Of a stretch of 64,000 nucleotides of DNA, positions 57,881 to 58,764 are shown one piece after another. Position 1 is the stretch's first letter. The number at the start of each line of letters is the position of its first letter. The DNA is from Escherichia coli. GTDB lineage: Bacteria > Pseudomonadota > Gammaproteobacteria > Enterobacterales > Enterobacteriaceae. A program made the position numbers and the translations under genes. The notes under the pieces are model-generated. The model did no database searches and was not told where the DNA came from. It worked only from the letters and a program-made list of their open reading frames with translations. Where the stretch lies: NCBI RefSeq assembly GCF_041886205.1, contig NZ_CP169029.1. The stretch is one strand, 5' to 3'.

Positions 57881-58726
57881 TCACATTATGCCCATGAAGC
57901 CATGTACGCCCATATACACACCGACTAAGCCAATCAACAGACTGGAAAAATAGGGGGCGCGTTTAGCGAGAGTGTTAAATCCGCTCCAGCGTTTTGCGAC
58001 CTGCTGAACGCTGATTGCTGCGCCAACGCCTACGGTGACAAGCGTTAACGCCAGGCCAATGCTGAAACTGACGACCAGTGTTGCGCCCAGTGTCAGGGCT
58101 TTCAACTGAATGCATATCAACAGCACGGTAATTGCTGCCGGGCAGGGGATAAGGCCACCGGTTAAGCCAAATAACAAAATTTGCCAGTTGGTGACCTCTC
58201 TACCATCAAAGCGTCGTTTAATGTCATTGGCATGGGCTCGTGCATGGGCATCCTGATACTCGCCATGTTCGTGATGGTGATGATGTCCATGGTCGAGGTG
58301 ATGTTCGTGGTCTTGATGATGTTCGTGATCGTGATGATGGTGATGATGCTCATAATCATGCCCGTGCATATTCTCCAGCCAGTTGCGTTCGCCGCGCCAG
58401 GTACGCCAGAACATCCAGAACGCGGTGCCAATAATGATCACTGCGGAAATCAGCTGGAGCCACGGTTCTGCTGATTGAGCAGTAAAGCGCTTACTGATCA
58501 CCATCCCGCCAAAGGCAATCAACCAGACCACCGCGGTATGCGAAATGGTTGCTGCCAGTCCGAGCATCACCGCCTGTTTAATGGTGCCTTTGGATGGCGA
58601 TGATAAACGCCGCCATCATCGTTTTTGAGTGCCCTGGTTCCAGGCCATGAAGCGCACCAAGTAAGATGGCGCTGGGGATGAAGAACCAGGCGTTTCCTTG
58701 CTGAAGAAGAGTTGTAAATTCGGTCA
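57881..58726 (-). pseudogene. rcnA: Ni/Co efflux protein RcnA carrying a +1 frameshift after codon 45 (His-rich loop intact downstream)
   Basis: First 46 codons MTEFTTLLQQGNAWFFIPSAILLGALHGLEPGHSKTMMAAFIIAI then stop; remainder (track ORF 57881..58570) continues in another frame; removing one base from atccaaagg restores IKGTIKQAVMLGLAA. Confidence 0.7.
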
Positions 58727-58764
58727 TGATAATAATTCTTAGTATTAATTCGGCAATCTGATTC

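Follow-up and report, generated by a model that had tools for sequence, protein, structure and literature searches.

A duplicated cytosine truncates the nickel and cobalt efflux gene rcnA in an Escherichia coli clone that keeps rcnR, its operators and rcnB

The 64,000-nt stretch of Escherichia coli DNA analysed here (contig NZ_CP169029.1 of assembly GCF_041886205.1; hereafter the window) contains rcnR, rcnA and rcnB in the synteny expected of an RcnA-family gene, with a divergent rcnR upstream and rcnB downstream. The rcnR gene (58848..59120, plus strand) is intact and encodes a 90-aa protein that is 100% identical to K-12 RcnR and matches the Pfam family Trns_repr_metal (E = 3.5e-21). The rcnB gene (57321..57659, minus strand), located 221 bp downstream of rcnA, is also intact, and its 112-aa product matches Pfam RcnB (E = 7.3e-19) and differs from the K-12 protein by one residue, L8S, near the N-terminus. 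Between them lies rcnA (57881..58727, minus strand), which is a pseudogene. The locus resembles rcnR-rcnA-rcnB of K-12 (b2105-b2107) in gene order, in orientation and in the possession of two TACT-G6-N-AGTA operators, and the window rcnA shows 97.6% identity to the K-12 b2106 block. The K-12 locus is reportedly the Ni/Co efflux locus described by Rodrigue in 2005, Iwig in 2006 and Bleriot in 2011.

TACT-G6-N-AGTA is the motif described for the RcnR operator (PMC7055735). Two boxes fitting it were found on the minus strand, box 1 (TACTGGGGGGGAGTA) at 58785..58799 and box 2 (TACTGGGGGGGAGTA) at 58765..58779, as expected of an RcnR-regulated promoter. At the unconstrained N, box 1 has G where K-12 has T, whereas box 2 is the same as the K-12 box. 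A first reading of the window made without database searches (the sequence-only reading) had described rcnR and its operators as intact, which was confirmed, with rcnB also found intact. Variation in the operators was seen in two relatives: in strain 6EVA both G-tracts are G9 rather than G7 (equivalent to window positions 58796 and 58776), reflecting either real changes or homopolymer assembly errors, and in the draft assembly GCA_024612335.1 box 2 is one G shorter.

The rcnA pseudogene begins with an ATG at 58727 and ends with a stop at 57881-57883. Its length of 847 bp is not divisible by three and exceeds by one base the 846 bp of the closest intact relative. Its sequence was aligned with rcnA of ET201, K-12 MG1655 and 6EVA, the last of which is intact at the insertion site. 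The result showed a one-column gap in all three references opposite the CC dinucleotide at 58592..58593 (minus strand), where one of the two Cs has been inserted, and the codons GCC ATC AAA GGC are thereby changed to GCC ATC CAA AGG C. The lesion is thus a C duplicated within a CC that is flanked by AT and AAA, and not a homopolymer slip. It is a direct fact of the sequence, to which a chance model is not applicable. The sequence-only reading had proposed a one-base frameshift truncating rcnA, together with a comparison with rcnA from other strains, and that comparison bore the proposal out by revealing a single extra C. The 46 codons that it had given before the stop were corrected to 49, comprising 45 native residues, MTEFTTLLQQGNAWFFIPSAILLGALHGLEPGHSKTMMAAFIIAI (MTEFTT...AFIIAI), followed by QRHH, in a truncated N-terminal ORF at 58578..58727 (minus strand) that ends with the TAA at 58580-58578.

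The rest of the protein, with the His-rich loop HHHHHHDHEHHQDHEHHLDHGHHHHHEH, lies, as had been claimed, in another frame, which is open over 57881..58570. From the ATG at 58567, this out-of-frame remainder (57881..58567, minus strand) comprises 228 aa plus the stop and covers the hydrophobic segments from residue 52 onward as well as the His-rich loop; no in-frame start for it was found upstream of the break. Deletion of one C in silico, from the atccaaagg in which removal of a base had been predicted to restore the protein, gave a continuous 281-aa RcnA that is identical to a public RcnA sequence on 137 contigs and aligns over its full length with K-12 RcnA. The repaired translation matches positions 1-285 of the 287 positions of Pfam NicO (PF03824) with E = 6.9e-72, a match that indicates ancestry only. 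In the window itself the domain is split by the frameshift, with positions 1-38 (about 13% of the domain) in the 49-aa ORF and positions 45-285 (of 287) in the out-of-frame remainder, and no single unbroken frame at rcnA carries the whole NicO domain as expected of a functional RcnA/NicO member. The frame is broken within residues 46-51, which a hydropathy scan showed to be a brief hydrophilic stretch following the first hydrophobic segment and the HGLEPGH motif.

The C duplicated after codon 45 (ATC) would shift the frame and bring translation to a stop at codon 50. Of the hydrophobic segments, the predicted 49-aa product would retain just the first, along with the HGLEPGH motif, with the other 228 codons out of frame, and therefore most likely no functional RcnA exporter is made. 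It is improbable that the allele is leaky, with some functional RcnA still arising through +1 slippage at CAA-AGG or through termination and reinitiation. By the first route, a rare Arg codon in the A site at CAA-AGG would lead to full-length RcnA with a K46Q substitution; by the second, the ATG that follows the stop would give rise to two fragments assembling in the membrane. Given the new AGG after CAA and this nearby ATG, low-level +1 slippage or reinitiation is conceivable. E. coli uses AGG rarely, and +1 shifts are promoted by 'hungry' AGG codons; the AGG at this site was created by the insertion, and 0 of the 10 Arg codons of the repaired gene are AGG. However, the CAA tRNA re-pairing on AAA would lose its first base pair, and a Shine-Dalgarno-like stimulator at the right spacing is absent from the site. 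As for reinitiation, the ATG at 58567 begins 10 nt after the TAA and could yield the 228-aa C-terminal fragment, and the break lies between hydrophobic segments, but the sequence AGGCGG ends just 2 nt before this ATG. The downstream ORF is without secondary lesions, as would suit a leaky allele, although a young clone would keep this ORF intact anyway. Were the allele not null, it would amount to a down-tuned, RcnR-regulated efflux, and the spread of the clone and of the other rcnA-null alleles described below could reflect selection for nickel retention, a proposal that we regard as equally improbable; nickel retention could then serve, for example, hydrogenases in nickel-poor guts.

The occurrence of the allele in other genomes bears on whether the extra base is genuine. 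In a search of 5,426 complete E. coli genomes, the whole window rcnA was matched at 100% only by NZ_AP045833.1, the genome of strain wlxctx60 from bear faeces in Japan, where rcnA carries the PGAP annotation "frameshifted". With a 71-bp query centred on the insertion, we found a second complete-genome carrier, NZ_AP027790.1 (strain 2017.06.05CC from human faeces, Viet Nam), with rcnA likewise annotated by PGAP as "frameshifted". The extra C was thus present in 2 of the 5,426 complete genomes and missing from 5,358 of the 5,360 that hold the segment. When looked up as exact sequences, the 49-aa peptide was present in 89 collection blocks and the 228-aa product of the downstream ORF on 105 contigs, and the two proteins have adjacent NCBI accessions. 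All four draft assemblies retrieved as DNA (4/4) have the extra C; over rcnR-rcnA-rcnB, GCA_032369805.1, GCA_012251385.1 and GCA_015286525.1 are identical to the window and GCA_024612335.1 is nearly identical. The flanks of the draft carriers, compared with the window, showed 0 SNPs in one and 9-11 SNPs in two; in one carrier an integrase/HamA island replaces thiMD, and one shows a deletion toward yehB. The 70 kb around rcnA in wlxctx60 contain about 60 CDSs, of which rcnA alone is flagged as a pseudogene, implying that this assembly is not riddled with indels.

A sequencing or assembly error, under which rcnA would in truth be intact and 846 bp long and which had been raised as an alternative in the sequence-only reading, is very unlikely in view of these results. 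Single-base indels are the commonest assembly error, and the extra C is carried by just two of the complete genomes with the segment. However, the site is a CC dinucleotide and no homopolymer run, no other pseudogene is flagged around rcnA in wlxctx60, the resulting peptide recurs in 89 collection blocks, and the window shares the base with two complete genomes and with at least four drafts that have different flanking haplotypes. A sequencing artefact should be irreproducible, whereas the allele recurs across many independent assemblies, namely about 90-105 independently assembled contigs and the two complete genomes. The identity of the allele in independent assemblies with differing flanks effectively excludes sequencing error, and the presence of the same extra C across these carriers points to a single origin and to inheritance through a diversifying clone.

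That RcnA production is regulated by a programmed or phase-variable frameshift is a reading of next to no likelihood: programmed frameshifting does occur in copA, another metal-transporter gene of E. coli (cited in a passage of PMC10942458), but a programmed frameshift is excluded by the absence of the extra base from nearly all complete genomes holding the segment, that is, by its lack of conservation among orthologues, and phase variation is excluded because the site has no repeat tract able to slip reversibly, neither a long homopolymer nor a short tandem repeat being found at the indel, and no slippery heptamer or Shine-Dalgarno-like element at prfB-like spacing being seen by eye at the rcnA site.

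The lesion was observed directly, as were its inheritance and clonal spread. Taken together, the results indicate that the window rcnA is, very probably, a genuine and vertically inherited pseudogene that arose from one duplicated C and most likely encodes no functional exporter. It is an ordinary one-base pseudogene, already flagged as such by RefSeq in two clone-mates. Literature searches on rcnA pseudogenes and frameshifts brought up no account of this E. coli allele; they gave only a His-loop VNTR in Salmonella and claims of an in-frame 'frameshift insertion' in Klebsiella.

The relationship of the window to its clone-mates was examined over the full 64 kb. The rcnA of wlxctx60 belongs to the same clone, and the window differs from that genome by 31 SNPs, one indel and a 768-bp IS1 in yehB, which rules out that the window is the wlxctx60 genome itself and shows it to be an independent isolate of the clone. 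Of the 31 SNPs, 7 lie within 180 bp (61469-61649) and 10 within 456 bp (63465-63920); these clusters, in yegX and yegW-yegV, look like small recombination tracts rather than point mutation. NZ_AP027790.1 also has the same inserted C and belongs to the same clone, its rcnA differing only by one additional 18-bp His-loop unit, HEHHQD. An independent recurrence of the lesion on another backbone in NZ_AP027790.1 was rejected on the grounds of this single repeat difference and of flanking protein alleles common to both genomes.

The IS1 in yehB distinguishes the window from wlxctx60 and is also missing from the draft clone-mates. It lies at 54942-55709 within this fimbrial usher gene and is bordered by a 9-bp target duplication, GTCTTTCCG, at 54933-54941 and 55710-55718. 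In relatives yehB has been hit independently, by an IS1 elsewhere in the gene in 6EVA, by a frameshift in ET201 and by a truncation in AP027790. A single IS1 insertion common to the window and 6EVA was ruled out, the yehB sites being different and the two IS1 copies only 97% identical.

Several other features were noted in the window and in carriers of the allele. In GCA_012251385.1, positions 1-3353 of the locus encode a tyrosine integrase, HamA and a DEAD/ResIII helicase (Hachiman-like defence genes), which occupy the place that in other carriers belongs to thiM-thiD-yegX, upstream of rcnR, and homology to the window begins only at locus position 3439. A TPP riboswitch lies upstream of thiM at window 59212-59308 (plus strand); it is annotated in wlxctx60, and its coordinates were transferred by alignment. 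At window ~36200-47400, adjoining metG in the syntenic wlxctx60 record, are three large tandem DUF4132-domain genes of about 1,215-1,250 aa each, which have in common 193-bp internal repeats that are 86% identical. According to the same syntenic record, a 3-hydroxybenzoate/gentisate degradation cluster lies between dusC and yohJ at window ~3650-9670, comprising mhbT, gtdA, a gene of the fumarylacetoacetate hydrolase family, maiA, a 3-hydroxybenzoate 6-monooxygenase gene and a LysR-family regulator gene. K-12 presumably has no such cluster.

In comparison with K-12, the window rcnA differs not only by the one-base insertion after codon 45 and the resulting truncation but also by a longer His-rich loop. 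The VNTR-like region encoding this loop (58265..58366, minus strand) is 7 codons longer than in K-12, giving a repaired RcnA of 281 aa compared with 274 aa in K-12, and RcnA of AP027790 is 6 aa longer again. A long version of the loop with HD repeats was found in one of the loci with the W68* allele described below. With these length differences the His-rich loop of RcnA behaves as an in-frame VNTR, and an rcnA VNTR has been described in Salmonella (PMC2658671).

Other premature stops were found in rcnA. 6EVA, which is among the two closest relatives of the window by rcnA sequence, has W104* (TGG to TGA), and its rcnA carries the annotation "internal stop". In 150 collection blocks rcnA has W68* (TGG to TAG), on at least three different rcnA backbones and His-loop variants, suggesting recurrent mutation, recombination or an old polymorphism. 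Both alleles resemble that of the window in combining a premature stop in rcnA with retention of rcnR and rcnB; unlike it, they are independent nonsense mutations at different positions. Judged from these alleles, predicted loss of rcnA is a repeated event in E. coli.

As for the consequence of the frameshift, RcnR would still be made and should keep binding the two operators and responding to Ni/Co. Since RcnR and its operators are intact, regulation should persist, though the message under its control would be defective. Carriers would be expected to behave like a ΔrcnA strain, with raised sensitivity to nickel and cobalt, and rcnB expression may be lowered through polarity. A passage in PMC10942458, citing Rodrigue et al. 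2005, states that deletion of rcnA sensitises E. coli to NiSO4. From the published ΔrcnA data, carriers of the allele are likely to lack RcnA efflux and to be more sensitive to Ni/Co.

The wider significance of the finding is small, and a lone pseudogene opens no new question. It does predict heightened nickel and cobalt sensitivity in isolates of the clone, and a usable clonal marker is provided by the extra C combined with the VNTR length of the His-rich loop. The analysis might be extended to a population-level study of metal-efflux loss. Considered together, W68*, W104* and the frameshift show that rcnA is dispensable in some natural lineages of E. coli.
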